Below are positions 1-20,109 of a stretch of 52,948 bases of DNA, piece after piece. Under the pieces are notes generated by a model, which saw only the letters and a program-made list of their open reading frames with translations, was not told the origin of the DNA and searched no databases. Source of the DNA: a virus (Duplodnaviria; Caudoviricetes); the IMG/VR virus record IMGVR_UViG_3300020171_000037, positions 1 to 52,948 of that record; one strand, given 5' to 3'. The stretch's first letter is position 1, and each line of letters opens with the position of its first letter. A program made the position numbers and the translations under genes.

Positions 1-44
1 ATGTAACCTTGTGACCTCAATAAAAAAAAAGTGTGGGTTTTGAA

Positions 45-175
45 ATAACATTTGTTATAAAAAGTTAATACACTAAGTAAAAATGAAAACGAATAATTTT
101 AATTTAACGTATTGATATTCAATTGATATAACATGTTATATTTTTGTTATAAAAAAACAGTAAATTTGTTATAAA
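45..175. repeat. Cluster of ATAACA/TGTTAT motifs upstream of terS (candidate cos/terminase-binding or operator region)
   Basis: TTTGTTATAAA at 51-61, 143-153 and 165-175; perfect palindrome ATATAACATGTTATAT at 126-141. Function is inferred from position only. Confidence 0.4.
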
Positions 176-177
176 TT

Positions 178-321
178 ATGAAAAAATACAGAATTACATT
201 AGATTCGAGTTATCTATTCCAGGAACAAGTGATTGAAGCTGAAAACATACTTCATTTACTGAGTTTAATTTGCAATGCATACAATTTAGATAGGATTACT
301 AAAATAGAACTTATTGATTAA
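178..321 (+). CDS. Small hypothetical protein (47 aa)
   Basis: ATG..TAA ORF read by eye, below the ORF track cutoff. Confidence 0.35.
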   Translation: MKKYRITLDSSYLFQEQVIEAENILHLLSLICNAYNLDRITKIELID

Positions 322-351
322 GTAATACCTTTTACAACTAAACGAAAAACA

Positions 352-921
352 ATGGCATTACTAACGCGAAAAGAATTTGCAAAGCTGATTGACAAAGATC
401 CTTTATATCTAGGTGTTTATATTAGCCGTAAAAAGTTAATTATTGAAAACAAGAAACTCGATACTAACAATATTATTAACAAAGAGTTCATTAATAAGCA
501 TTCATCAATAAAAGAGTTTAAAGAATCAGAACAGAAACAAGAACAACAAACTGCAGGTAATGAAGTGAATATAGGCAATATTGACTATGTAGTAAAGCAA
601 CATTCTTTAAAATTAAATTCGATTAAGTTAAAAAAAGAACAACTCGAAATCGAAAAGAAACAAGCTAAGGTAATGCCAGTTGATTTTACAATTGAAATAT
701 TCAATAATTACATGAAGGGTAATATTAACGGTTTAATTAACGATGGGTTTTCGATAATAGATGAACTAATTGAAGAAATGAATGGTAGTTTTGAGCTTAA
801 ATTAAAATATAAGAAAGCATTAAAAGGAAAATTCAATGAAACAATTAGGATAAACCACGAATCAATTTCGAAAAGCATCATTGAAAAGGCTAATGAATAT
901 GCATTACAAAGGAATTGGTAA
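352..921 (+). CDS. Probable terminase small subunit
   Basis: N-terminal HTH-like segment (LLTRKEFAKLI), central coiled coil, typical size; would abut the recombinase-terL block if the cassette array were removed. Confidence 0.6.
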   Translation: MALLTRKEFAKLIDKDPLYLGVYISRKKLIIENKKLDTNNIINKEFINKHSSIKEFKESEQKQEQQTAGNEVNIGNIDYVVKQHSLKLNSIKLKKEQLEIEKKQAKVMPVDFTIEIFNNYMKGNINGLINDGFSIIDELIEEMNGSFELKLKYKKALKGKFNETIRINHESISKSIIEKANEYALQRNW

Positions 922-939
922 TCTCTTTTTTGGCATTGC

Positions 940-1071
940 GTACAACGTTTGGTATATGACCAGTAGCGGATTAAATAGTAATAACCTATCAAATTAGTAG
1001 AATGAATATAGATACAACAGAAACTTCGCAAACCACCGCCCCCGCTATTGGTTATATACCGCGTGTTACCT
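940..1071 (+). repeat. attC-like site A
   Basis: GTACAAC 940-946; arms GGTATATGACCAGTAGCGG 951-969 / CCGCTATTGGTTATATACC 1042-1060; GTTACCT 1065-1071. Confidence 0.88.
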
Positions 1072-1680
1072 GCCGTTTTTCGTGTTTTAAATCTTTGCGC
1101 TGGTATTGGCGGAAACCGTAAAAACTGGAAAGATTGCCAAGTTACAGCCGTTGAAAAAGACCCTAAAATAGCAGCACTTTATAAAAAACTTTATCCTGAT
1201 GATACTGTAATAGTTGGTGATGCTTACGAATACTTAAAAGAAAACTTTGAAAACTTTGATTTTGTTTGGATTTCTCCACCATGCCAAAAGCATAGTAAAA
1301 TGATGAAATTTACAAGGCATAAAGTAGCCGATTACCCAGACTTTAAACTTTATGAAGTGATTGTGTTTTTAGACAACTTTTTTAAAGGGAAATGGGTTGT
1401 TGAAAACGTGAAACCTTATTACAAACCATTGATTGAACCGACAGCCGAAATTGGAAGACATTTATTTTGGGCAAACTTTAAGATTGACCAGGTAAAAGTT
1501 GAACAGCCTAAAAACTTTATAAACAAGGCTAATATGGAAGGTAAAAAGGCAATGATGGACTGGTTGGGCATTCACTTTGAAGAAACAATTTATTATGGTA
1601 AAAATCATTGCCCTGTTCAAATTTTAAGGAATTGCGTTCATCCAATAGTTGGTGAGGCTATTTTCTTAAATGGCAGGTAA
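1048..1680 (+). CDS. Short C5 cytosine DNA methyltransferase (cassette 1); start uncertain (TTG 1048 or GTG 1063, both within site A)
   Basis: Motif I LNLCAGIGG, catalytic SPPCQ, VVENV, motif X-like RNCV. Confidence 0.8.
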   Translation: MVIYRVLPAVFRVLNLCAGIGGNRKNWKDCQVTAVEKDPKIAALYKKLYPDDTVIVGDAYEYLKENFENFDFVWISPPCQKHSKMMKFTRHKVADYPDFKLYEVIVFLDNFFKGKWVVENVKPYYKPLIEPTAEIGRHLFWANFKIDQVKVEQPKNFINKANMEGKKAMMDWLGIHFEETIYYGKNHCPVQILRNCVHPIVGEAIFLNGR

Positions 1681-1764
1681 CTATTCGTATAAACTGCGTT
1701 GGCAAAGTCCGATGTCAGTTTATAAGTAGCTAAATGCCAAATGCAATTTATACGGGTGTTGTGG
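1675..1764 (+). repeat. attC-like site B
   Basis: AGGTAAC 1675-1681; arms CGTATAAACTGCGTTGGCA / TGCCAAATGCAATTTATACG; GTTGTGG 1758-1764. Confidence 0.85.
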
Positions 1765-1795
1765 TGCGTTTTTAAACATTTAATAAATAAATAAA

Positions 1796-2071
1796 ATGGG
1801 AATAAAGAAAATAGCAAGACCTATTAACTACGCAAAAAATTATTTTATTGAGTGGTTAAAAGAAAATGAAGCCTATAATATTGATGTATATGATGGGATT
1901 GATGAAAATGGTGAGTGGGATTATTACAGAACTGTAAGTGGATTTATAGGTGATTCATTGTACACGGTTTATTTTACGATGTGGCATGGTAAGATAAAAA
2001 TTGATTACTCTGATGATGAAAATAGATATTCTGATATGAGCATTTATGAGTTTATGCAGTTATTAACCTAA
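1796..2071 (+). CDS. Hypothetical protein (cassette 2)
   Basis: 91-aa ORF filling the cassette, A-rich leader, stop overlapping the next site's flank. Confidence 0.75.
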   Translation: MGIKKIARPINYAKNYFIEWLKENEAYNIDVYDGIDENGEWDYYRTVSGFIGDSLYTVYFTMWHGKIKIDYSDDENRYSDMSIYEFMQLLT

Positions 2072-2076
2072 ATGCA

Positions 2077-2167
2077 CTACAACGATGACAATAAACCAAG
2101 TTTGGTAACGAAACCGATTTCGTAACCAAATAGTGTCAAACCAAATAGGGTTTATTTGGGGTTATAC
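2077..2167 (+). repeat. attC-like site C
   Basis: CTACAAC 2077-2083; arms AATAAACCAAGTTTGGT / ACCAAATAGGGTTTATT; GTTATAC 2161-2167. Confidence 0.8.
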
Positions 2168-2203
2168 AATGGCTTTCAAGTAATTAACTCAAATAAAAAT
2201 TAT

Positions 2204-2596
2204 ATGAACAATTTAAACGAATTATCAAAACAGATTTACGAAGGTAATAAACTTCGCGGCTTCGATGTTTCAAAAGAAAATATCGGACAAACATTAATGC
2301 TTATAGTATCAGAACTGTCAGAAGCTTTGGAAGCTGATAGGAAAGCAAAATTTGCGAATATGAAAGTGTTTGAAAGTTGCATGGAAGCTGATGATATTAA
2401 AGAAAGTGATATGGATTATTACATAAAACAATCATTTGAATTTAATATTAAAGACACTTTTCAAGATGAAATTGCAGATACATTAATTCGCCTATTTGAT
2501 TTATGCGGTGGTTTACAAATTGATATTGAAAAGCATATTAAATATAAATTAGATTACAATTCAAAGCGAGAATTTAAACACGGTAAGCGTTATTAA
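2204..2596 (+). CDS. MazG-like nucleotide pyrophosphohydrolase (cassette 3)
   Basis: LMLIVSELSEALEA..DEIADTLIRLFD..KLDYN..R..KHGKRY pattern; ATG at 2204 preferred over TTG at 2156. Confidence 0.8.
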   Translation: MNNLNELSKQIYEGNKLRGFDVSKENIGQTLMLIVSELSEALEADRKAKFANMKVFESCMEADDIKESDMDYYIKQSFEFNIKDTFQDEIADTLIRLFDLCGGLQIDIEKHIKYKLDYNSKREFKHGKRY

Positions 2597-2602
2597 GCTA
2601 TT

Positions 2603-2697
2603 GTATAACGGTGGTTGTATGGTGTCGGTTTGCCTTGCAGAAACTTTCACAATACCGATACATTATCCGGCAAACTGCACTATACAACGTGTTAGCC
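2603..2697 (+). repeat. attC-like site D
   Basis: GTATAAC 2603-2609; arms GTTGTATGGTGTCGGTTTGCC / GGCAAACTGCACTATACAAC; GTTAGCC 2691-2697. Confidence 0.9.
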
Positions 2698-2739
2698 GTT
2701 CGGTTTTTATTTTAGTAATTAACTTTAAAACAATATTTT

Positions 2740-3033
2740 ATGAACGAAAAATTAGAACAGGCAAATAAACTACAAAAACAGATTGAAGAACTGGAAAACT
2801 TTCTTTTCGTAGTTGTAGAATTTGACGAAAAATCAAAAGCAATACCGAGCGTTTGGTGCTCAATGACTAAAACCATTAAAGTTGAATTGTCATTGTTTGG
2901 CTTTAGGGGTTTTGGCTGTGGAAATCATTCGCAAACCGTGGTTATACCTAATTTAATCAGAAATAACCTAATTGATTCCTGTAAAGCAAGGCTTCAGGAA
3001 TTAAAAGATGAACTTGCTACGAAGCTGTCTTAA
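2740..3033 (+). CDS. Hypothetical protein (cassette 4)
   Basis: 97-aa ORF filling the cassette. Confidence 0.75.
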   Translation: MNEKLEQANKLQKQIEELENFLFVVVEFDEKSKAIPSVWCSMTKTIKVELSLFGFRGFGCGNHSQTVVIPNLIRNNLIDSCKARLQELKDELATKLS

Positions 3034-3039
3034 ACTGAC

Positions 3040-3335
3040 GGCTAACGATTGGCGGTATATTGTCGGTTGCCGCTTGAATAACCGACACAGTTGAAACGAG
3101 TATTAACTTAACAATTTACGTGCGATGGATAACTTACAAATTAGAGACCAATTTGATTCTGTAACATTCAGAAACAAAAAAGCTGTTTGCATTTTAGAGG
3201 TGCAAAATGAATATAAAACTTCTGAATTTCGATTGAAAAAAAGTGATGCAATAAGCATAATTGCACATTTGCAGGAGTGGGTAGGCATAAAAGCCGATAC
3301 GAGCAAAAGCAACTGCAATATACCGCGTGTTGTGC
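3040..3335 (+). repeat. attC-like site E with a ~238-nt coding loop
   Basis: GGCTAAC 3040-3046; arms GCGGTATATTGTCGGTTGC 3052-3070 / GCAACTGCAATATACCGC 3309-3326; GTTGTGC 3329-3335. Confidence 0.8.
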
Positions 3336-3448
3336 CCTGTTTACCTAGTTACTCATGCCCCTATTGCAATAGCACGCTTATTAACTACAATAAAGTTGAT
3401 GGTTGGAGTTGTGATAATTGTGACGAAACCTGGTTGAATCCTTCTTAA
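3125..3448 (+). CDS. Hypothetical protein with C-terminal zinc ribbon (cassette 5); N-terminal part encoded inside site E
   Basis: CPYC..CDNC; reads through the right arm and GTT box. Confidence 0.65.
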   Translation: MDNLQIRDQFDSVTFRNKKAVCILEVQNEYKTSEFRLKKSDAISIIAHLQEWVGIKADTSKSNCNIPRVVPCLPSYSCPYCNSTLINYNKVDGWSCDNCDETWLNPS

Positions 3449-3453
3449 ATAGG

Positions 3454-3546
3454 GTACAACGTTGGCGGTATGAACTGACCGCCTATAAGACAGTTCAATA
3501 GTACAAATTATGCTCTCAGGCGGTTTGTTTATACCGTGGGTTGTAG
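3454..3546 (+). repeat. attC-like site F
   Basis: GTACAAC 3454-3460; arms GCGGTATGAACTGACCGCCT / AGGCGGTTTGTTTATACCGT; GTTGTAG 3540-3546. Confidence 0.87.
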
Positions 3547-3563
3547 GGCGTTATTCAATATTT

Positions 3564-3974
3564 ATGACCATAGAAAATATTATTTACGAAACGACAAGAG
3601 AGATTTATAGTATTGAAGATAAGCTTAGAATTGCCACTATATTTTTATTCTGCGAAAAAATGGATTCTAAATTATTTGCTGAATTGCTTTACACTGACAA
3701 CCACGAAAAATTTATTGATAATATAAATTTGGAGTATTCTCATTATGAAGTTGATTTCTCTATTAGATTACAAGATAAAAATGTGAGAAATAGCTTTTAT
3801 AAAACGCTTGAAAAAGCTAAAGAACAATTTGACGACAATGGGTTTTACAAGGCTTTATTTGAGAAAGACGAATTTGCACTTGTAATTTATGAAATAGTAG
3901 GCTACAATTTTGATGCTATACAAATGAAAAAAATTACAAAGAATATAGCCGTTCAGTTGCAGCTCGCTCTCTAA
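3564..3974 (+). CDS. Hypothetical protein (cassette 6)
   Basis: ATG at 3564; the frame is also open from ATG 3510 within site F. Confidence 0.75.
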   Translation: MTIENIIYETTREIYSIEDKLRIATIFLFCEKMDSKLFAELLYTDNHEKFIDNINLEYSHYEVDFSIRLQDKNVRNSFYKTLEKAKEQFDDNGFYKALFEKDEFALVIYEIVGYNFDAIQMKKITKNIAVQLQLAL

Positions 3975-3978
3975 TGCC

Positions 3979-4041
3979 CTACAACGAATTGGTGTATGCG
4001 GAGGCTGAGGCACGAAGCTTACGTATGACACCGTGTTATAC
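3979..4041 (+). repeat. attC-like site G (shortest, 63 bp)
   Basis: CTACAAC 3979-3985; arms GGTGTATGCG / CGTATGACACC; GTTATAC 4035-4041. Confidence 0.8.
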
Positions 4042-4146
4042 ACTGGCGTTAACCACTTACCTGCAATTGAAACACGGACGTAATAATTATTTTTTTAGGG
4101 AGGGTATTTTTCTTTAATATTTCTTGTGTATATGAAATATACAATA

Positions 4147-4154
4147 TATCTTTG
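4147..4154 (+). promoter_or_regulatory. Bacteroidota-type -7 promoter box inside cassette 7
   Basis: TATCTTTG matches TAnnTTTG, ~40 nt upstream of ATG 4193. Confidence 0.55.
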
Positions 4155-4192
4155 TTGTAAGAAATTTAATTAGAAACTAAAAACATACGATT

Positions 4193-4468
4193 ATGACTAA
4201 TCAAATTATTTTTAAAAAAGGACAAAAGGTAACAATTACCAACGGAATGAATGCTTCTGATTTTAACATGAACCAAACTTGGAGCATTATGAGTGCCTAC
4301 AATGTTGAAGAATGGTTTAAAAAGGAATTTACAATTGAAGGTACAGTAAAGTTAATAACATTTACTCATTCGCCAGAAGTGTATGGAGCTTATCTATTAC
4401 AACATAATGGCGTTAATGTTGGGTATATTTACAATACAGGAATTAAAGCTATTAAAGATGAAGCGTAA
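4193..4468 (+). CDS. Hypothetical protein (cassette 7, gene 1)
   Basis: 91-aa ORF. Confidence 0.7.
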   Translation: MTNQIIFKKGQKVTITNGMNASDFNMNQTWSIMSAYNVEEWFKKEFTIEGTVKLITFTHSPEVYGAYLLQHNGVNVGYIYNTGIKAIKDEA

Positions 4469-4619
4469 AAACTTAGACTTAACAGAGAATTGCATAAAAG
4501 AAATTGCAAAAGAGGCTATTGATAAAGGCACAGATTTTAAAAATTTAGCTCAGGATATATTAGAAGTACATGCCAAAACCTTAATTGCCGATAGGCAAAA
4601 GAGCGAGGGCAAAAAATAA
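4458..4619 (+). CDS. Small putative ribbon-helix-helix DNA-binding protein (cassette 7, gene 2)
   Basis: MKRKNLDLTENCIKEIAKEA..GTDFKNLAQDILE strand-helix-helix pattern; ATG at 4458. Confidence 0.55.
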   Translation: MKRKNLDLTENCIKEIAKEAIDKGTDFKNLAQDILEVHAKTLIADRQKSEGKK

Positions 4620-4673
4620 TTATGGATAGTTTACACAGGCATTGATTAAGTGAGCTGAGGTTCTTACGCTTGT

Positions 4674-4769
4674 GTATAACGGCTGGCGGTATGGTGTCGG
4701 TTTGCCTTGCAGACTTTTTCAACCTATCACAGACCTTAATGGCAAACTGCACTATACCGCATGTTGTGT
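4674..4769 (+). repeat. attC-like site H
   Basis: GTATAAC 4674-4680; arms GCGGTATGGTGTCGGTTTGCC / GGCAAACTGCACTATACCGC; GTTGTGT 4763-4769; arms nearly identical to site D. Confidence 0.9.
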
Positions 4770-4838
4770 GTCTGGTGCGGTCAAATTGCGAAACAGTTGA
4801 TTAAATGAACAGATGTAATAATTAAATATTTTTTAGGG

Positions 4839-5060
4839 ATGGCATTTTTTGATTTAAACACAATGAGGGAACAGGATGCAGTTATGCAATGCCCATACTG
4901 TTTTGAAGATTTAACTGAAAAAGATATAATTGGTGAAACAGTATATGATGTTGTAAGAATAGGACATAACATTGGTGGAGATGCAACAGTTTTTGAATGT
5001 CCGAAATGCTTTGAAAAATCATTTATTCATAAAGAAAGTTTGAAATGGAAAATACAATAA
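4839..5060 (+). CDS. Small zinc-finger protein (cassette 8, gene 1)
   Basis: CPYC..CPKC. Confidence 0.7.
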   Translation: MAFFDLNTMREQDAVMQCPYCFEDLTEKDIIGETVYDVVRIGHNIGGDATVFECPKCFEKSFIHKESLKWKIQ

Positions 5061-5275
5061 ACTTTGAAGGTAAAGAAATAAAATGGGAATATACTATCTG
5101 CCCATGCTTGCAATGCCCAATTTATCCAACAAAAAAGAAATGGGAAGAAGAAGCAGAAAAAGACGTAAGAAAGGATAAGTGCTATACTTCAAGATGCACT
5201 TATTCAAAAAATCTTGCAGCGAGTATTGCTTGGGAAATACATGATTTACGTTTTGGTTGGGAGGAAAATATTTAA
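5045..5275 (+). CDS. Small Cys-containing hypothetical protein (cassette 8, gene 2)
   Basis: 76-aa ORF overlapping the previous gene's end. Confidence 0.6.
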   Translation: MENTINFEGKEIKWEYTICPCLQCPIYPTKKKWEEEAEKDVRKDKCYTSRCTYSKNLAASIAWEIHDLRFGWEENI

Positions 5276-5327
5276 TTATGGTCAAGTTCCTACAAATGTT
5301 CATTAAATGCACGAATGTAGCACTTGC

Positions 5328-5458
5328 ACACAACGTATGGTGCTATGAGCAGTAGCGGAATTTAAAAAACTAAACTTGAAAATTATGACAGAATTAAATA
5401 ATATACCTGAACTTGAAGCAAACACGAACACCGCTATTGATTATAGCACGTGTTACAG
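5328..5458 (+). repeat. attC-like site I
   Basis: ACACAAC 5328-5334; arms GTGCTATGAGCAGTAGCGG / CCGCTATTGATTATAGCAC; GTTACAG 5452-5458. Confidence 0.9.
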
Positions 5459-6287
5459 GCAGTACGGTATTAATGTACTGTCTCTATTCGATGGAATGTC
5501 TTGTGGTAGAATTGCTTTAGAACGAGCAGGAAATAAAGTAAACAACTACTTTGCTTCTGAAATAGATGAAAAAGCAATTTACATAACGCAAAAAAACTAC
5601 CCAAACACAAAACAACTTGGAAGTGTTACAGAAATTAAAGGTACGGATTTACCGCAAATTGACCTATTAATAGGAGGGTCTCCCTGCCAAAGTTTTAGTT
5701 CATTTGGTAACGGAAAGGGTTTTGATGGTAAAAGTGGATTATTCTGGGAATTTGTAAGGATTTTGAATGAAGTAAAACCAACATTCTTTTTACTTGAAAA
5801 TGTTGTGATGAAAAAAGAATGGGAAGATATTATTACAGATGCACTTGGAGTAGAACCTATACGCATTAACTCAAATCTATTTTCTGCTCATAACAGACCG
5901 AGAATATATTGGACCAACATACCAATAAATGAATTGCCAAAGGAAAACAAAACAACTGTTTATGATATTTTAGAAACACCAAGCTTTCATAATAACTACC
6001 CTAAATGGTTGTTGGGTAAATTTGGAAATAAAACGAGATTAGAACAGTTGTGGTATGCTGATGGGAAAGCAAGTTGTTTAACTTCAAATATGCACAAAGG
6101 ACAAAAATCTACATTTACAAAAGACAGGAACGAAAATATACATAGACTTACTGTTATAGAATGTGAGAGATTACAAACTGTACCTGACAATTATACAGAA
6201 GGTGTTTCAAACACAGATAGGTATAAAATGTTAGGGAATGGCTGGACTGTTTCTGTGATTGCTCACATTTTCGGAGGACTAAAGTAG
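5385..6287 (+). CDS. C5 cytosine DNA methyltransferase (cassette 9); starts in the loop of site I
   Basis: VLSLFDG, GGSPCQ, LLENV, ERLQT, LGNGW motifs. Confidence 0.92.
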   Translation: MTELNNIPELEANTNTAIDYSTCYRQYGINVLSLFDGMSCGRIALERAGNKVNNYFASEIDEKAIYITQKNYPNTKQLGSVTEIKGTDLPQIDLLIGGSPCQSFSSFGNGKGFDGKSGLFWEFVRILNEVKPTFFLLENVVMKKEWEDIITDALGVEPIRINSNLFSAHNRPRIYWTNIPINELPKENKTTVYDILETPSFHNNYPKWLLGKFGNKTRLEQLWYADGKASCLTSNMHKGQKSTFTKDRNENIHRLTVIECERLQTVPDNYTEGVSNTDRYKMLGNGWTVSVIAHIFGGLK

Positions 6288-6293
6288 TATTGC

Positions 6294-6422
6294 CTGTAAC
6301 GTTGAAGCTATGACCAGTAAAGGATTACGGAGCGATAAACTGTCAACTGATACCAAGCTGGATGCGAGCTATAACGTTTGAATAACCGCCGAAACCTTTA
6401 TTGGTTATAGGTTGTGTTACCT
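6294..6422 (+). repeat. attC-like site J
   Basis: CTGTAAC 6294-6300; arms CTATGACCAGTAAAGG / CCTTTATTGGTTATAG; GTTACCT 6416-6422. Confidence 0.88.
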
Positions 6423-6465
6423 GCTGGTGTTTGTACTAATTTATTAATATTCTTAATTTTACGAT

Positions 6466-7644
6466 ATGAAAACGATTAAAAGGAACAACGGAAACGACAT
6501 TAAAATTTATGCAACTACTTTAGAAGATGTTGCATTTGAACAAATTAAAGAACTTGGCGAATTTGAACCATACCAAGATTCTAAAATTAGGATTATGCCC
6601 GATTGCCACGCTGGTGCAGGTTGCACCATTGGAACTACAATGGAAATTAAAGACAAAATTACACCTAATTTAGTGGGAGTAGATATTGGTTGCGGAATGC
6701 TTACGGTTAAACTAAAAGAAACCGATATTGATTTACAAAAGTTAGATGCTGTTATTAATGAATTTGTACCAAATGGATTTAATACACATACTGAACCTAA
6801 AGCAGAATTTGAGTTTGATAAATTGCTTGCTAAAAACCTAAACGTTGGACGTGCTAAATTATCAATTGGCTCTTTGGGTGGCGGAAACCATTTTATTGAA
6901 GTTGGTAAAAACTCAAAAGGTGAGTTATTTTTGGTTATACATTCAGGTTCTCGAAATATTGGTGGACAAGTTGCAAAATATTACCAAGATATTGCAATTG
7001 AAAACTTAACGGATAACTCTAAAGAACGTGAAGAATTGATTGAGCGTTTGAAAAAAGAAGGTAAGCAAAATGAGATTGGCGAAGAGTTGAAAAAACTTAA
7101 AAAACCAATTATAAACAAAGATTTGGCTTACCTAACTGGTACTGACTTTGATAATTATATGCACGATATGGAATTGATGCAGAAATTTGCTGTATTAAAC
7201 CGTAGAACTATGGCAAATATTGTATTAGAAAAGGCTCAATTAACCGAAGCCGAAGCATTTGAAACAATACATAATTACATTGATTTTAAACGTATGATTT
7301 TGCGAAAAGGTGCTGTTTCTGCTGAAAATGGAGAAACCTTACTTATTCCAATTAATATGCGTGACGGGTCAATTATTGCCAAAGGTAAGGGGAATGAAGA
7401 TTGGAACTACTCCGCACCACATGGAGCAGGGCGTTTGATGGGTAGAAATGAAGCACATAAAAAATTGAACTTTGATGAATTTAAAGAACAAATGAAAGAT
7501 GTTTATTCAACTTCTGTTTTAACCGAAACACTGGACGAAGCTCCAAACGCCTACAAGTCAATGAATGAAATTATCGAAGCAATTGGAGAAACTGTTGAAA
7601 TTGTAGATATTATCAAACCTATCTATAATTTCAAAGCTCATTAA
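6466..7644 (+). CDS. rtcB: RtcB-family RNA ligase (cassette 10)
   Basis: MPDCHAG, VGVDIGCG, GSLGGGNHFIE, IHSGSR, HNY..RKGA, SAPHGAGR, DEAP.AYK motifs. Confidence 0.95.
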   Translation: MKTIKRNNGNDIKIYATTLEDVAFEQIKELGEFEPYQDSKIRIMPDCHAGAGCTIGTTMEIKDKITPNLVGVDIGCGMLTVKLKETDIDLQKLDAVINEFVPNGFNTHTEPKAEFEFDKLLAKNLNVGRAKLSIGSLGGGNHFIEVGKNSKGELFLVIHSGSRNIGGQVAKYYQDIAIENLTDNSKEREELIERLKKEGKQNEIGEELKKLKKPIINKDLAYLTGTDFDNYMHDMELMQKFAVLNRRTMANIVLEKAQLTEAEAFETIHNYIDFKRMILRKGAVSAENGETLLIPINMRDGSIIAKGKGNEDWNYSAPHGAGRLMGRNEAHKKLNFDEFKEQMKDVYSTSVLTETLDEAPNAYKSMNEIIEAIGETVEIVDIIKPIYNFKAH

Positions 7645-7667
7645 ATGCAGTGCAGTTTCTTACACTT

Positions 7668-7725
7668 GCAGGTAACTATAATTAAAAGTAATTGTTTTAA
7701 ATACTTAATATAAAACTACTTACAA
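7668..7725. other. Terminal half-site, candidate attI-like primary site
   Basis: GCAGGTAAC box not followed by a clear attC-like arm pair and GTT box; AT-rich spacer up to the recombinase ATG. Confidence 0.55.
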
Positions 7726-8541
7726 ATGGAATTGTCAGAAATAAAAAAGATTTATGTCAAAGAAATGAATCTTAAAACTAGGTCAAAACAAACTATTGAT
7801 CAGTATATGTCATGTGTAAATAAATTCACTAATGAAAATAGTAGAATTTACAGAATGACAAAAGATGAAATCAAAAACTACATGTCAGAATTTCGGTGTA
7901 GATATTCTGATTATTATTTCAATGTAATGGGTTCAGCTTTGAAAGTGCTTTATGAAAAAGTATTGAATCAAAATGAAAAAATGAAATGGTTTGTTCCTGT
8001 AAAAACAGAAATGAAATATCATAACATAATTTCAAATGATGAATTTATAAAAATGATGAAAAAAGCTAATAACATTAAACATAAATTCATAATCATTTTA
8101 TTGTATTCAACTGGAATTCGAGAAACTGAATTTATAAACATAAAGCTTGCTGACATTAATTATGAAGACAATTCCATTTTCATTAAAACTTTAAAAAACG
8201 GTAAAAATAGACATGTATCATTAAGACCACTTTGCAAAAAATATTTACAGGCTTATTTAAAACAATGGAATCCTATTGAATATTTACTAAACGGTCAAAC
8301 TGTTGGTAGTAAATATACCTCATCAAGTATGTTAAAAGTGATTAAAAATGTTTCTGATAATAAATTTACAGTTCATGATTTCAGGCACACCTTTAGTACT
8401 TTGACAATCGAACATGAAAACGTGTTTAGAACAAAAGAAATTTTAGGACACAAAAGCCTTAATAGTACGCTTCATTATTATCATATTCCTAAAAACCAAT
8501 TAAGTTCAATGTATAATCCACTTGACAGTATCGCAGTATGA
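7726..8541 (+). CDS. Tyrosine recombinase, putative cassette integrase
   Basis: LYSTGIR(R), KNGKNR(K), HDFRH, LGHKS, TLHYYH(Y), C-terminal NPLD resembling the SPLD tail of integron-type integrases; stop overlaps the terL start (ATGA). Confidence 0.92.
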   Translation: MELSEIKKIYVKEMNLKTRSKQTIDQYMSCVNKFTNENSRIYRMTKDEIKNYMSEFRCRYSDYYFNVMGSALKVLYEKVLNQNEKMKWFVPVKTEMKYHNIISNDEFIKMMKKANNIKHKFIIILLYSTGIRETEFINIKLADINYEDNSIFIKTLKNGKNRHVSLRPLCKKYLQAYLKQWNPIEYLLNGQTVGSKYTSSSMLKVIKNVSDNKFTVHDFRHTFSTLTIEHENVFRTKEILGHKSLNSTLHYYHIPKNQLSSMYNPLDSIAV

Positions 8542-10649
8542 GCCAATTAGAAATAACAGTAAAAAAAATACTCGATTCATTGAATGTAATTTCAGATGAT
8601 TTGAACCCAGTCGAATGGATACCAAAACATAGAACTATTCAACCTTATGTATCAATTAACATGTCGGGCAAATTTGATTGGTCAAATACACCATACATGA
8701 AAGAAATTACAAACCATTTAGATCAATATAGCCCTACTCAATATATTGCATTAATGAAGGGGGTTCGAGTTGGTGGAACATTCGCATTAGTTCATAATGG
8801 AGTGCCATATATAATGAGCGAGAGACCTGCAAATATTATGCTAATTTCAGCTAATAAAGAACTGGCACGAAAAACAATGCAGGGAGTTGACCACGGCATT
8901 GACGGTTGTAAGATTCGGCACTTAATGACTAAAAGTTCGGGCGTAAAAAGTAATTCGAGTGGTGACACAATGGAATCAAAAAGCTTTGCAGGTGGTTATG
9001 AGCTTTTCAATTTCGGTGGGCAATCAATTGACAATATGAGACAAGTTACAGCCTCAATAATAATTGCAGACGAAATAGATGCCATTAAAGAGAAATCTAA
9101 AGAGGGTGGTAGTTTTATTAAACTAATGGGCGACCGGGCAAAAGATGCAGGGCTTTTAAAGAAAATTATTTATTTAAGTTCGCCGCGGTTGTTAGATTCG
9201 AGTTTGATTTATGAATTATTTTTGGAAGGTGACCAAAGAGTGTATTATGTACCATGCCCGAAATGTGGCGAATATATTGAGCTGGTTTGGAATGAACGGA
9301 ACGAAAACAATACAAGATATGGGATTATTTTTGATGTAAAGAATAGCGAAGTAATTAAAAATAGCGTTCGTTATCGGTGTGGAAAATGTGAGAATGAATT
9401 TGCCGAAACAAAACAATTAAAAAAAGACATGCTAAATGCAGGGTATTGGAAACCCACAATTGAACGCGAAAATAAAACCTTTGTGAGTTATAGACTTTCA
9501 GCATTATATGCCCCTCCGACAATGGACAATTGGTATGATTTCGCTATTGAATATCAGAAAGCATTTCCGAGAGGTGGAATTAAAGACGATTCGCGTTATC
9601 AAAGTTTTGTCAACTCTATTTTAGGCATGCCGTTTAAACCTGAAGGTATTACTTTAAAATCAACTCGATTACAGGAAAACAGGCGCGAATATAAAATAGG
9701 TGAATGCCCGTTTGAATTGTCTAAAAAAGACGGTAACGGCGAAATAATTATTATTTCAATGGCATGTGACTTGAATGGATGGGAAGATGACGGGCGTATT
9801 GATTATGAAATAGTGGCAAAATCTGAAAAGGGCGCAACATATTCCATTGATGCAGGTTCATTTGGAACGTTTATTCCTAAAGTTGAAAAAACAGCATTGG
9901 AGCGCGAGGGGGTTAATGTAGCAAAAGAGGATAGCGAACGGATAAAATACACCTACAAACTTGGAGTTGAAAATAGCATTTGGAAACAATTTGAAGAAAA
10001 GATTGCTTTGACTTACGGAAAATCAGAAAGAAAACTAACTATTATAACAATTGACGTTGGGGTTTATAAAGATTTAGCAATATCGTTTGTGAAACGAATT
10101 AAAAACATGGGTTATACTGTTATTCCAATTATGGGAGCCGATGAAGAAATATTCACACAACAAAATAAAACCGAAACAGGCTCAATTTATCAGATTGCTA
10201 AAGTAGGTGACATTTATTTATTGAATGTAAATGTTATAAAAGATAAACTTTCAAAGTATATTAATTCAGAAAGCTACATTGATGAAGCAGGGCAAATGCA
10301 GCAACCGCCAAACTTTATGAATTTTCCTGAATACGATTCAAAGCAAAACAAATACACCTATCGAAATTACTTTGCTCATTACGAAGCGGAGCATAAACTT
10401 GTTAAAAAAACAGAGGGCGGAATTGATAGGTATTTGTGGGAAAAGAAACGCCCTGGTATTCAAAACCACTTTTGGGATGTTAGGATTTACAATGAGTTTA
10501 GCGCAATATTTATGACCGATTTGATTTGCTCAAACTCGAACCCATACAAAGCGCGAAATTACAAAACCCAAAAGATAACAGCCAATTGGGAAAATGCAGC
10601 TAGGTTAATTAAAGAGGCTAGTATTGAAAATAATGTACCTTTGAGTTAG
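8538..10649 (+). CDS. terL: Terminase large subunit, lambda GpA family
   Basis: MKGVRVGGT Walker A variant, IIADEID Walker B, SSP, GDQRVYYVPCPKCG, NHFWD. Confidence 0.93.
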   Translation: MSQLEITVKKILDSLNVISDDLNPVEWIPKHRTIQPYVSINMSGKFDWSNTPYMKEITNHLDQYSPTQYIALMKGVRVGGTFALVHNGVPYIMSERPANIMLISANKELARKTMQGVDHGIDGCKIRHLMTKSSGVKSNSSGDTMESKSFAGGYELFNFGGQSIDNMRQVTASIIIADEIDAIKEKSKEGGSFIKLMGDRAKDAGLLKKIIYLSSPRLLDSSLIYELFLEGDQRVYYVPCPKCGEYIELVWNERNENNTRYGIIFDVKNSEVIKNSVRYRCGKCENEFAETKQLKKDMLNAGYWKPTIERENKTFVSYRLSALYAPPTMDNWYDFAIEYQKAFPRGGIKDDSRYQSFVNSILGMPFKPEGITLKSTRLQENRREYKIGECPFELSKKDGNGEIIIISMACDLNGWEDDGRIDYEIVAKSEKGATYSIDAGSFGTFIPKVEKTALEREGVNVAKEDSERIKYTYKLGVENSIWKQFEEKIALTYGKSERKLTIITIDVGVYKDLAISFVKRIKNMGYTVIPIMGADEEIFTQQNKTETGSIYQIAKVGDIYLLNVNVIKDKLSKYINSESYIDEAGQMQQPPNFMNFPEYDSKQNKYTYRNYFAHYEAEHKLVKKTEGGIDRYLWEKKRPGIQNHFWDVRIYNEFSAIFMTDLICSNSNPYKARNYKTQKITANWENAARLIKEASIENNVPLS

Positions 10650-10739
10650 ATATGAAATATAATAAAAATAATTTAAAATAATTTGCACAACCAAAAAAGT
10701 ATATGTAATTTAGCAAAAATAATTTAAAGTAAATTGCAT

Positions 10740-11336
10740 ATGAAAACAAATCAAGTATTAAAAAGGAATGATGCATTTGTACAAAGGACTAAGGATGGTT
10801 ATTTTGATTCAAATACATTAATTAATAATTGGAATTTAAACAATCCATCAAAAAGAAAAGAGTTAGCAAAATATAAGGCTAATAATTCAACTAAAGAATA
10901 CATTGAACAATTAATAAAAAGAGGTGTCGAAAATCCTATGTTAATTTCTAATAAAGGTACCTGGATGCACCCTAAGTTATTTATTGACTTTGCTATGTGG
11001 GTTTCAGTTGAATTTAAGGATTTAGTTATTGATTACGTTTTGGATGGGTTAATAAAGAGCCGTAACGATTCAGGCGATTATTATAATCAAATGTGTGCAA
11101 CTATTTTAGAAACCTATGTAAATTATTACCATTGCAAGCCCCCTGCACATATTTATATTGAAGAGGCTAATTTGATTAAATCGTTAGTTACAAATAAGCC
11201 TAGAAATGAAATGAATGAGCAAGAATTAAAACAAATAACTTATTTACAAAAGGTCAATTCTAATTTGCTAAAAAAAGGAATTGGAAAGTCTGCAAGGGTT
11301 AAGAGATTACATGAAGCATCTGAAATAGAAATATAA
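10740..11336 (+). CDS. KilA-N domain DNA-binding protein
   Basis: QRTKDGYF..GTWMHPKLFIDFAMW. Confidence 0.8.
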   Translation: MKTNQVLKRNDAFVQRTKDGYFDSNTLINNWNLNNPSKRKELAKYKANNSTKEYIEQLIKRGVENPMLISNKGTWMHPKLFIDFAMWVSVEFKDLVIDYVLDGLIKSRNDSGDYYNQMCATILETYVNYYHCKPPAHIYIEEANLIKSLVTNKPRNEMNEQELKQITYLQKVNSNLLKKGIGKSARVKRLHEASEIEI

Positions 11337-11372
11337 CTAAAGTAAATAAGTAAACTTAAAAAAATTAGAATT

Positions 11373-11741
11373 ATGATAATAAAAACTAAAGAAGTATATT
11401 ATTGCCAATATTGTAAAAAACATGGGCTTAATAAAAAACAAATGGAATACCACGAAACTATTTGTGTAAAAAATCCAATTAACGATAGGCCTTGTTTTCA
11501 TTGTGAAAATTTAGATAAAAAAGAAACTGAAATATATGGGCAATATTTCGATGGTAGCGAATGGAGTAGAAAACTAGATTTATTATATTGCAAAGTAAAT
11601 GAATGCTTTTTATTTACTCCTAAAAATCAAATAAAAGGTAATCAATTTGATTTAGGTGACGAAAACAATGAACCCATGCCAAAAGAATGTAAAATTTACA
11701 ACTCAATTAAAAAGGTTAATAAATCAATATTTGAATTATAA
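11373..11741 (+). CDS. Cys-rich hypothetical protein
   Basis: CQYC..H..C, CFHC. Confidence 0.7.
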   Translation: MIIKTKEVYYCQYCKKHGLNKKQMEYHETICVKNPINDRPCFHCENLDKKETEIYGQYFDGSEWSRKLDLLYCKVNECFLFTPKNQIKGNQFDLGDENNEPMPKECKIYNSIKKVNKSIFEL

Positions 11742-11867
11742 TTCATATATTTACACTTCGATTTAGTATTTAGACTAAAAAATAGTAACAATTAAAACTT
11801 ACGATTATGAAACATTAATTAAAATTAGAGTACTACTTGATAAATCAGAAAGCAAATAAATTAAAAT

Positions 11868-11898
11868 AAAAATCCACCCAAATAGAGTGGATTTTTTT
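11868..11898 (+). terminator. Intrinsic terminator
   Basis: AAAATCCAC..GTGGATTTT stem followed by a T run. Confidence 0.65.
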
Positions 11899-11925
11899 AT
11901 TTTTACTACTTATTAATTTTTTTCA

Positions 11926-11933
11926 TAACTTTG
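11926..11933 (+). promoter_or_regulatory. -7 promoter box upstream of head genes
   Basis: TAACTTTG, after the terminator and before ORF 11950. Confidence 0.5.
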
Positions 11934-11949
11934 ATAAAAATTTGAATGC

Positions 11950-12195
11950 ATGAATATTACAGATTTAAAAGCCGAATATGAGATACTTAAGCTACAATTA
12001 GCCGATGTAAACACTCAAATCACAGCAATTTTAAAGAAAAATAAAAAATACACTTATTCAAACATTGAAAGCTCGCATTCTGCTGAAACCCACTCACTTA
12101 CAGACTTAATTTCACTTAAAAAATCTATAAAAGAAGAAATGAGTATAATTGAAAACCAGTTAGGCAGCTCTTTTGTTAAATTAAAAAACTACTAA
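11950..12195 (+). CDS. Probable gpW-like head-tail joining protein
   Basis: Helix-hairpin-helix 81-aa protein between terL and portal, matching lambda gene order. Confidence 0.6.
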   Translation: MNITDLKAEYEILKLQLADVNTQITAILKKNKKYTYSNIESSHSAETHSLTDLISLKKSIKEEMSIIENQLGSSFVKLKNY

Positions 12196-18600: not shown

Positions 18601-20109
18601 ATGGCAAATTCAGCAAGTCAAATAATGCCAAACGCTGCGGCGGCTGGTAGCTTTTATAAAGTTGGTTTAGGTTCGTTAACTGGACTTTCACCACTTTTAG
18701 AGCAAAAGATTGCCGTGTTATGTGAAGCTAACGCGGACATGCAAACTGAGGGTGCACAAGATGGGGGAGTTTTGAAACCCATCACATCTAAGGAAGTTGC
18801 ATTAAAATTTGGGTATGGCAGCCCGGCACATTTAGTAGCCAAAACGCTAATTGATGAATTATCAGTTGGAGTTGAAACTAAATTCTTTTTTGTTGCAGAA
18901 AACGGAAGCGCAACCGTAACTAAAACCGTAATAACTGGCACGGGTGCAACCATTACCAAAACAGGTTCAATTGTTTTGAATATTAATGGAGTTTTACTTT
19001 CAGTTGGTTTGGTTTTAGCCGATACTTTGGCGGAAGCTTTAGTAAAAATTAAAACTGCCATCAATGCGGAAATTAACTTACCTGTTTTAGTTTCAACTCC
19101 AACCCCGACAACTTCAATTTCAGTTGATTCAAAATGGAAAGGTTTGAGTTCAGTTCCTTTAACCGTAACCGTTGATTCATTAACCGCCGAGGGAATTACT
19201 TTTGCAGGTGTAAAAACTGATGGCACCGGAGAAACCGCTTTGGCCTCAACATTGGCTAAGTTTCAAAACGATTGGTATCCACATATTTTGAACACACTTG
19301 GGGAGGGTGGTACAAATGCAAACTTAGATGCTTTTGAAACATTCATTGGAACAGCCGCCGCCGGAACTGGCAAATATGCACCAGAGAATATGACACCTTG
19401 CGTTGCTTGGACTGCGACAAGCACATCAGTATTAGCTACATTACAAGCTGTAACGTCAACTAGATTAGATTATAGCTCAAATGTGTACATTCCAGTTCCA
19501 AACGCTCAAGATATTCCTTTTATTAATGCCACAAATGCATTGGGTATTTTCGTTAAAAAATCAAACGGAGACCCAAAACAGGATATTTTGGACGATGTTA
19601 TTCCAGGTGCAACCGCGCCCGAAGATCTGAACGTTGGTGACATTATTAATTATTCATTTAGGGATGCATTAGTAAAAGCTGGTTGTTCAACTACAAATTT
19701 TAGGAATGGTTCGTATTATGCCGGTGACATTATCACAACTTACCACCCAGAGGGCGAAACTGACCCAATATTCAGATATGTAAGGGATTGTATGATTGTT
19801 TTCAACATTTTGAATCAATTCAAAGCATTCAATTTGAAGCAAAAAAACAAAACAATAGCTCCAAACGCTTTACCAAGTGCAAGGATTACAAGTCCAAAAT
19901 TGTACAAAGCTGGTATTTTGAATGAGATAATTAAGCCTTTTGTTGAAGCTGGTTATATTGCTGATTTCGATTACGCAAAAGCTAATTTAGATGTGGGAAT
20001 TGACCCAACAAATGCAGGCCGTTTCAATGTACTTTCTCCAAACTTAATAACTAGCTTATTGAGAATAGTTGCTACTGAAGTTCAGGTTAATAAATATTAT
20101 GGTGCCTAA
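18601..20109 (+). CDS. Contractile tail sheath protein (Mu-like)
   Basis: FGYGSPAH motif, ~500 aa, C-terminal DPTNAGRFNV. Confidence 0.85.
   Translation: MANSASQIMPNAAAAGSFYKVGLGSLTGLSPLLEQKIAVLCEANADMQTEGAQDGGVLKPITSKEVALKFGYGSPAHLVAKTLIDELSVGVETKFFFVAENGSATVTKTVITGTGATITKTGSIVLNINGVLLSVGLVLADTLAEALVKIKTAINAEINLPVLVSTPTPTTSISVDSKWKGLSSVPLTVTVDSLTAEGITFAGVKTDGTGETALASTLAKFQNDWYPHILNTLGEGGTNANLDAFETFIGTAAAGTGKYAPENMTPCVAWTATSTSVLATLQAVTSTRLDYSSNVYIPVPNAQDIPFINATNALGIFVKKSNGDPKQDILDDVIPGATAPEDLNVGDIINYSFRDALVKAGCSTTNFRNGSYYAGDIITTYHPEGETDPIFRYVRDCMIVFNILNQFKAFNLKQKNKTIAPNALPSARITSPKLYKAGILNEIIKPFVEAGYIADFDYAKANLDVGIDPTNAGRFNVLSPNLITSLLRIVATEVQVNKYYGA

Follow-up and report, generated by a model that had tools for sequence, protein, structure and literature searches.

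What moves genes in and out of the run of small cassettes at positions 944-7725 of the virus record IMGVR_UViG_3300020171_000037 (Duplodnaviria; Caudoviricetes)? The window analysed here is that whole record (52,948 bp, 32% G+C, classed as linear and 86% complete), and in it the run is punctuated by ten hairpin sites bounded by AAC and GTT boxes and followed by the gene for a tyrosine recombinase of 271 residues. It is very probable that 944-7725 is a site-specific gene-cassette platform working like an integron. A first-pass annotation, made from the letters of the sequence, had proposed a gene-capture platform with its own tyrosine recombinase, and this is borne out by cassette turnover in related phages (the viral-contig loci L008 and L009, the locus L004, and the cultured Polaribacter phages named Freya) and by an AAC half site that recurs before the recombinase gene in 9/9 loci. 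The recombinase does follow the array directly, as was claimed; its gene begins about 50 nt past the terminal AAC and its product matches PF00589 and PF13495.

Hairpin sites, complementary ends and covarying stems

All ten hairpin sites of the first-pass annotation are present in the sequence, each AAC beginning 4 nt past the site start given there (10/10), and the sizes it reported, 63-296 bp, agree with the measured boxes. Each site reads, in order, AAC (mostly then G), a spacer of 5-6 nt, an arm, a loop, an arm, about 3 nt, and GTT, the AAC-to-GTT span being shortest in site 7 (55 nt) and longest in site 5 (288 nt). The AAC/GTT outer boxes, the imperfect inner stem and the variable loop fit the plan of the integron attC site in 10/10 sites, and the loop often contains an A-rich leader and a start codon. 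That the sites separate open reading frames (ORFs) is true between cassettes, but four genes begin inside a site, those of cassettes 5, 6 and 9 with an ATG there and that of cassette 1 with its frame from 1048. Folded as single-stranded DNA (ssDNA), the + strand of nine sites gives z-scores of -1.45 to -4.14 (200 shuffles each; site 5 is too long and lies outside this test) and is more stable than the - strand in 8/9, the exception being site 2. A loose scan for AAC/GTT stems, with 184 + strand matches against 92-118 in shuffles, is too permissive for use. The arms of sites 4 and 8, of about 40 nt, are almost identical, and the cargo of these two cassettes is unrelated.

The ends of successive units are mutually complementary. 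The GTT box and tail of each site complement the tail and AAC box of the next (10/10), the pairing extending in order over 14, 10, 15, 9, 10, 14, 9, 8, 14 and 9 nt and never including more than one G.T pair, whereas the two boxes of one site pair with each other over 3-6 nt only. The last partner is an eleventh element (7668-7676), a bare tail and AAC with no hairpin after it, which pairs with the tail of the tenth GTT over 9 nt. Isolated pairs of at least 9 nt are frequent by chance (94 in the remaining 44 kb of the window), so the signal is the unbroken head-to-tail chain; at strict settings the + strand of the window yields six linked sites and the - strand none, and linked sites are absent from 15 of the 17 control loci that hold only distant recombinases. 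Pairing with the next site instead of with a site's own partner box is the signature of integron cassettes, and by analogy with these, complementary ends would be expected if each unit had once been circularised at its AAC/GTT boxes.

The stems covary. In a structural alignment of 20 sites of the ~120-nt class from seven phage loci, the RNAalifold consensus is a 16-bp stem with compensatory double changes in 13/16 pairs, and two stem pairs are retained as G.U in 17/20 sites each; in the consensus fold these are conserved G.T pairs, not bulges as are the extrahelical bases of attC. When pairs are tallied with no preference for either strand over 71 detected sites, of which a few are likely to be false, the stems give 109 G.T against 14 A.C and the tails 40 G.T against 4 A.C, an excess that points to the + (coding) strand as the strand selected to fold. 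A covariance model, a check of the kind that the first-pass annotation had recommended, was built from the 20-site alignment and run over 266 kb; at E up to 0.1 it gave 68 matches, and no locus has them on both strands. Its six matches in the window are confined to the array and to one strand, and three of them are outside the training set (site 6, E 1.7e-6; site 7, E 0.0011; site 3, E 0.09); the model, having been trained on the ~120-nt class only, did not detect sites 2, 4, 5 and 8 at the same threshold. The model also matches Freya_10 at E 2.7e-12. Locus L013 has a strong match (19250-19396, E 1.6e-9) outside the main array, some 9 kb downstream of its recombinase gene, which could belong to a second array or be a stray site.

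The attI-like site and the breakpoints of related arrays

Eight viral-contig loci (L004 and L007-L013) were recovered with the alignment of the recombinase family, and with the window they make up the nine loci compared here; single-protein and two-sequence searches of the viral contigs retrieved only L004. In 9/9 loci the AAC half site stands 48-52 nt upstream of the recombinase start, with conserved A/T-rich sequence after it. In the window this attI-like site is the junction of variable with conserved DNA, the homology to L004 resuming at 7664, and chains of the same sites lie upstream of the corresponding point in the relatives, up to 14 detected in L008 and at least ten in L010. The attI-like regions of L008/L009 (9952-10000) and L010 (6950-6998) contain two imperfect direct repeats of about 10 nt before the recombinase start, reminiscent of the accessory repeats that the integrase binds in attI1.

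L004 has a recombinase 76% identical to that of the window and an array of entirely different content. The DNA common to the two comprises the upstream gene as far as its stop codon (window 638-921 = L004 57-340), everything from the terminal AAC on, and two short array pieces. Cassette 5 of the window has a homologue in L004 (site 4407-4687, ORF 4487-4795), where it is the last cassette and has different neighbours. In both copies the gene opens in the loop, crosses the right arm and the GTT, and stops just before the next AAC, and the arms and tails have diverged yet are still complementary, i.e. they covary. Comparison of this pair indicates that the hairpin travels with the gene that starts in or after it and that the crossover is at the left AAC box. 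L004 also holds a stretch of about 45 nt that is present twice, and a 26-nt inverted repeat (2768-2793/3057-3082, 96% complementary) without AAC/GTT boxes around a whole 56-aa ORF, which may be a decayed or variant site.

L008 and L009 are 99.4-100% identical over their common parts and differ by whole cassette blocks. L009 is without L008 2463-9493, and at the deletion junction one AAC box has contributed its left tail and the other its hairpin, which places the exchange within about 9 nt around the AAC. An extra 2.5 kb of cassettes in L009 is inserted precisely where the last AAC meets the conserved A/T-rich sequence. A fixed gene set with breakpoints unrelated to the boxes, the contrary pattern named in the first-pass annotation, is not seen: the L008/L009 junctions all fall within TAAC. 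L009 and L010 are 97% identical over a 152-nt cassette end and 71% identical over their recombinase regions.

The cultured Polaribacter phages Freya_1 and Freya_10, with an integrase 27% identical to the recombinase of the window, have flanks 100% and 99.9% identical. Their length difference of 4,942 bp is traced to one block of 4,921 bp, inserted in Freya_10 at an AAC that precedes the integrase ATG by 44 nt; this block opens with G and a hairpin arm, that of its first site, resembling the arms of window sites 4 and 8. That related phages should differ in cassette content between conserved flanks had been put forward as a check, and they do so in L004, in L008/L009 and in Freya. The ten Freya records (MT732463-MT732472; L002, L003, L029, L030) have an identical integrase in genomes of 43,978-48,920 bp and show seven integrase offsets (50, 51, 511, 983, 3245, 3840 and 4147), the comparison of junctions covering Freya_1 and Freya_10 only. 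Finally, contigs from two other metagenomes (X3 and X4) are 90-99% like single window cassettes in other contexts; AAC boxes (944, 3047 twice, 4677, 5335 twice and 7676) account for seven of the 12 loose ends listed, and an X4 contig diverges immediately past 7676.

The recombinase, its possible mode of action and rival accounts

The recombinase belongs to a family of about 38 proteins of ~270 aa with 44-76% identity, the next tier being at 35% or below. R132, K157, H217, R220 and Y251 are invariant among 35 homologues and H242 nearly so, and they align with the active-site motifs of XerA; we take these six residues to be the catalytic set of a tyrosine recombinase. Among NCBIfam models XerA_Arch scores highest (124.5 bits, cut-off 220), while the model of the integron integrase IntI (TIGR02249) reaches 82.8 bits against 265, in two stretches, and NF011946 reaches 35.8 against 435; XerC (88.9, cut-off 335) and XerD (73.8, cut-off 330) are far from their cut-offs as well. 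Dimer resolution of the Xer/dif type was considered and rejected, as the enzyme stays below the XerA, XerC and XerD cut-offs and there are eleven sites against a single dif. In a comparison with solved structures, the alignment of the family profile runs the full length of archaeal XerA (4a8e, 5hxy) and falls into two pieces on the Vibrio integron integrase (2a3v), leaving ~43 IntI residues unmatched, with profile positions 177-201 opposite IntI4 residues 180-247. The AlphaFold model (predicted local distance difference test score, pLDDT, 89.3) has no helix between those at 168-181 and 199-209, and in a fold search XerA is the best match (E 4e-12) and 2a3v the ninth, with 319 alignment columns for 271 residues. 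Since XerA is best in both profile and fold and the IntI insertion is unmatched, the enzyme is, as judged by sequence profiles and a predicted structure, a plain Xer-type tyrosine recombinase that lacks the IntI insertion. A search of 185,579 species genomes gave no relative above 35% identity and no prophage copies of the family, which argues against a lysogeny integrase. The Freya integrase has been read as a sign of a temperate life style in a passage of Bartlau et al. (PMC8776804). A scan of metagenome contigs gave only two distant recombinases (22-26% identity), with arrays absent.

A cassette has the plan AA/C-G (the stroke marking the presumed cleaved bond), 5-6 nt spacer, left arm, loop, right arm, ~3 nt spacer, GTT, tail, cargo, complementary tail, AA. 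If the platform works like an integron, the + (coding) strand, when single-stranded, would fold to a hairpin, to which the adjacent XerA-like recombinase would bind, exchanging strands in or beside the 5' AAC box. Exchange between two cassette sites would produce a circle whose tails pair over 8-15 bp, and recombination of the circle with the attI-like site, which precedes the recombinase gene by 50 nt, would insert the cassette beside the recombinase. We infer that this recombinase is the acting enzyme and ssDNA its substrate, with resolution by replication. Read on the - strand, the locus gives the classical integron map of integrase, attI and units that cross over at the far GTT box. The + strand of the window then corresponds to the 'bottom' strand of attC, whose 5' AAC is cleaved in integrons. 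Statements on the attC bottom strand are found in parts of PMC2727003 and PMC3458562.

The array is like integrons, especially sedentary chromosomal ones, in that an attI-like site beside the recombinase gene receives new blocks. It shares with integrons in general the imperfect hairpin with AAC/GTT outer boxes, inner stem, asymmetric unpaired spacer and variable loop, the mutually complementary cassette ends, the crossover at the box far from attI, and the length of many sites, about 120 nt; one strand is favoured for folding in both, a bias that RNA folding would also produce in the phage array. It is unlike them in its XerA-like enzyme without the IntI insertion, and in its genes, which lie on the folding strand and point to the recombinase, whereas integron cassettes are promoterless and read outward from Pc at attI, with the integrase divergent. 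Unlike integron genes, too, the phage gene often opens in the loop and closes in the TAAC box; the loops reach about 300-400 nt, two conserved G.T pairs stand in place of extrahelical bases, and the array is phage-borne, between packaging genes. The integron-like reading of the first-pass annotation is supported, with four amendments: the crossover is at the left AAC, the site heads the downstream gene, the genes face the recombinase, and the enzyme is XerA-like.

Several observations weigh against a recombinase acting on ssDNA hairpins. The enzyme is without the ~43-residue IntI-specific region that includes the I2 helix, and the gain of this helix is credited for the shift of IntI to single-strand recombination in part of PMC7790495. 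Xer enzymes, themselves without an I2 helix, nevertheless exchange one strand pair on a hairpin of folded single-stranded CTX phage DNA, according to a section of PMC3442271, so that the mechanism stays plausible without I2. L004 carries two to three canonical sites for about eight genes, and among the 12 loose ends listed for X3 and X4 one (X4, 2690) lies at a GTT box and four lie elsewhere. The metagenome runs are assembled contigs, with excised circles, read-level junctions and abundance beyond their reach, and metagenome assemblies may in principle mis-join at repeats; against this, the junctions have no more than about 9-16 nt of sequence in common, and the Freya phages are isolates. Lastly, the G.T bias falls on the transcribed strand, for which RNA folding is an equally good explanation.

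This last point leads to the view that the hairpins are RNA-level or regulatory elements, shuffled by homologous or microhomology recombination in the manner of the promoter-early stem-loops (PeSL) of T4-type phages, with the recombinase uninvolved. The conserved G.U pairs and the better-folding strand are those of the mRNA, start codons are located in loops, and PeSL-mediated shuffling is a precedent, as repeated stem-loops bound small variable genes in hyperplastic regions of T4-type phages (excerpts of PMC2839356 and PMC4122927). The PeSL of these excerpts are, however, promoter/terminator motifs thought to use homologous recombination, and no dedicated recombinase, AAC/GTT boxes or complementary cassette ends are described there. 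In the array the tails pair across 80-1260 nt of coding sequence, which has no obvious RNA role and suits a circular cassette; the junctions have only about 4-16 nt in common; and in each of two unrelated phage groups the insertions fall precisely at a single fixed AAC upstream of the recombinase. Nor are the sites terminator-like, as none of the four terminator-like matches in 1-9000 is on the + strand (4.5 expected by chance), or members of an Rfam family, the five weak matches in 1-9000 (E up to 5) being off the sites and all below the gathering score. A promoter-plus-terminator stem-loop of the PeSL type was itself rejected, there being no + strand terminator-like site in 1-9000. A sigma-70 promoter scan, with 42 sites against 43.4 expected, shows no enrichment and is uninformative. 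We regard it as very unlikely that the sites act at the RNA level alone and the recombinase plays no part.

A different account keeps the sites as DNA elements and takes the phage enzyme out of play: they would be ordinary attC sites from bacteria, moved by host IntI or Xer, and the phage enzyme would be a lysogeny integrase or dimer resolvase, or the array would be a pile-up at a dif-like site resembling integrative mobile elements exploiting Xer (IMEX). Clusters of attC sites lacking integron-integrases (CALINs) are indeed reported in 17 phages, a Polaribacter phage among them, with virulent phages as carriers and DNA methyltransferases among the cargo, and IntI1 recombined 5/6 phage sites tested, in the available part of Qi et al. 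2023 (PMC9892861). These CALINs are fragments of at least two sites without integrase, assayed with bacterial IntI1, and that part of PMC9892861 describes no phage recombinase, attI or cassette turnover; Polaribacter phage P12002L, which is named there, is absent from the 33 records that match the Freya integrase at E up to 1e-15. The same account can call on the CTX phage, since there it is host XerCD that recombines the folded single-stranded DNA (again a section of PMC3442271), and on two Bacteroidales genome bins, where sites of the phage family form large arrays. It has to meet the facts that the array adjoins the recombinase gene with a conserved half site in 9/9 loci and in Freya, that the 185,579 species genomes hold no prophage copies of the recombinase family, and that the Bacteroidales chromosomal arrays likewise stand beside a XerA-like recombinase and not IntI. 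A host IntI is, moreover, unlikely in Bacteroidetes, because the IntegronFinder 2.0 preprint, in the part available, gives earlier In0 elements and now one complete integron (Salinibacter ruber) for this phylum. Membership of the CALIN class (at least two attC with no integrase nearby) was ruled out, the recombinase gene lying 50 nt past the last cassette; IMEX elements are whole phages or islands using host enzymes, not single-gene cassettes with an enzyme of their own, and Xer resolves dimers at a single dif site. Gene modules between Xer-type sites, like the phage cassettes, are also known as the pdif modules of Acinetobacter plasmids, which are unlike the phage array in their double-stranded XerC/D sites, alternating orientation, host enzymes and want of hairpins. 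Movement of borrowed attC sites by host enzymes is, on balance, improbable.

Somewhat better than even, in our estimate, are the chances of an IntI-independent integron, in which a minimal XerA-like enzyme without the I2 helix would carry out single-strand hairpin cassette recombination. Such a system would be a second invention of the integron principle or the relic of a Xer-like ancestor, and one site family would serve both the small arrays of Bacteroidota-type phages (this record, L004-L013 and Freya) and the far longer ones of Bacteroidales chromosomes, with a shared cassette pool possible. The two Bacteroidales genome bins (L018 and L022, recombinase 31-34% identical) have at least 70 and at least 27 covariance-model matches, counts that are lower bounds with 150 candidates scored per genome, and their arrays span tens of kilobases (G001:C1:668938-715427, G001:C4:1709537-1745933 and G002:C8:170145-222417). 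A 529-aa protein beside these arrays has a XerA-like C-terminal half (232.5 and 219.1 bits against the cut-off of 220), is below the IntI cut-off, and has an unexplained N-terminal half of 260 aa; the gene order relative to the array is unlike that of the phages.

Cargo, flanks and significance

The features of the locus are collected in Table 1. The cargo in the window consists of two C5 DNA methyltransferases, a MazG-like pyrophosphatase, RtcB and eight small proteins without family, and all cassette genes, with the recombinase, are on the + strand, facing the attI-like site. The methyltransferase frame of cassette 1 opens within the right arm of its site, and its 210-aa product, which matches PF00145 at 40.3 bits over just 112 N-terminal positions of the 324 in the model, is perhaps a truncated or degenerate enzyme. 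Among 50 curated cassettes of the nine loci the longest ATG frame begins within the site in 32, and the stop codon is the TAA of TAAC in 16. A TAAATG-type motif recurs at cassette 3' ends (window 7641-7650, 5300-5310, 4795-4805 and 2066-2075; L004 855-900 and 1945-1990), and accounts for stop codons that lie either 1 nt or 12-13 nt short of where the AAC box ends (28/50 cassettes).

Table 1. Features of the cassette locus and its flanks (positions in the window; sites run from the first letter of AAC to the last of GTT)
Feature	Position	Strand	Hairpin site	Content
Conserved upstream gene	352..921	+		phrog_5193 only, function unknown
Cassette 1	944..1680	+	944-1067	19-bp stem; short C5 DNA methyltransferase frame 1048-1680
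Cassette 2	1679..2082	+	1679-1760	ORF 1796-2071, 91 aa, no family match
Cassette 3	2081..2608	+	2081-2163	ORF 2204-2596, MazG-like pyrophosphatase (phrog_9236, 5.5e-31)
Cassette 4	2607..3045	+	2607-2693	ORF 2740-3033, 97 aa, no family
Cassette 5	3044..3459	+	3044-3331	long site; loop contains start of ORF 3125-3448, 107 aa
Cassette 6	3458..3984	+	3458-3542	ORF 3510-3974, 154 aa, no family, ATG in loop
Cassette 7	3983..4679	+	3983-4037	shortest site; small ORF 4193-4468 and frame ending 4619 (ATG 4383)
Cassette 8	4678..5333	+	4678-4765	ORFs 4839-5060 and 5045-5275
Cassette 9	5332..6299	+	5332-5454	C5 DNA methyltransferase 5385-6287, start in loop (PF00145, 160.9 bits)
Cassette 10	6298..7676	+	6298-6418	RtcB RNA ligase 6466-7644 (PF01139, 214.4 bits); ends at 7668-7676
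attI-like site	7674..7725	+		AAC, then conserved A/T-rich sequence in place of G and hairpin
XerA-like tyrosine recombinase	7726..8541	+		271 aa; PF00589, PF13495 (Phage_integrase, SAM_4)
Terminase large subunit, conserved right flank	8538..10649	+		GpA ATPase and nuclease domains

The larger cassette genes of the relatives (19 tested) include five N6/N4 DNA methyltransferases above the cut-off, one marginal D12 methylase, one sub-threshold Eco57I-like match, one PAPS-reductase domain and one SpoU methylase, and 10/19 have no family match. The array would probably serve as a swappable set of anti-restriction and counter-defence genes.

The first-pass annotation had placed the array between the genes of the small and large terminase subunits. 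The large subunit is upheld by its domains, but family profile searches gave no terminase-small match for the upstream gene. The closest counterparts of the large subunit in the phage collection are the terminases of Cellulophaga and Flavobacterium phages (31-34% identity), from which a Bacteroidota host is likely. A megablast search of the phage collection with positions 1-12000 gave no match, and the record as a whole has no near DNA match in a set of 50,697 phage records.

Integrons are viewed as an invention of bacteria, linked to the one enzyme IntI and its I2 helix, and the first-pass annotation, to which they were not known as a standard phage feature, left novelty open. Clusters of attC sites in phages have been published, without a phage recombinase or attI in the available part of that report (PMC9892861). 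Our literature search, which did not cover subscription journals, found no published account of a phage cassette platform with its own recombinase, and this suggests that an integron-like cassette system with a XerA-like enzyme in phages has yet to appear in print. If the system is what we propose, hairpin cassette recombination would be possible without the I2 innovation, by a plain Xer-type enzyme, and phages would own a dedicated gene-capture device. Part of the hypervariable 'ORFan' stretches in flavobacterial phage genomes would be explained, and the size range of the Freya isolates (44.0-48.9 kb, from a passage of PMC8776804) would be easier to understand. Freya on Polaribacter is a cultured system suited to the study of the cassette platform, and the cassette cargo is a catalogue of candidate anti-restriction and counter-defence genes. 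Phages and their hosts may, moreover, draw on a common cassette pool, and the anti-restriction arsenal of the phages would then be a fast-changing one.

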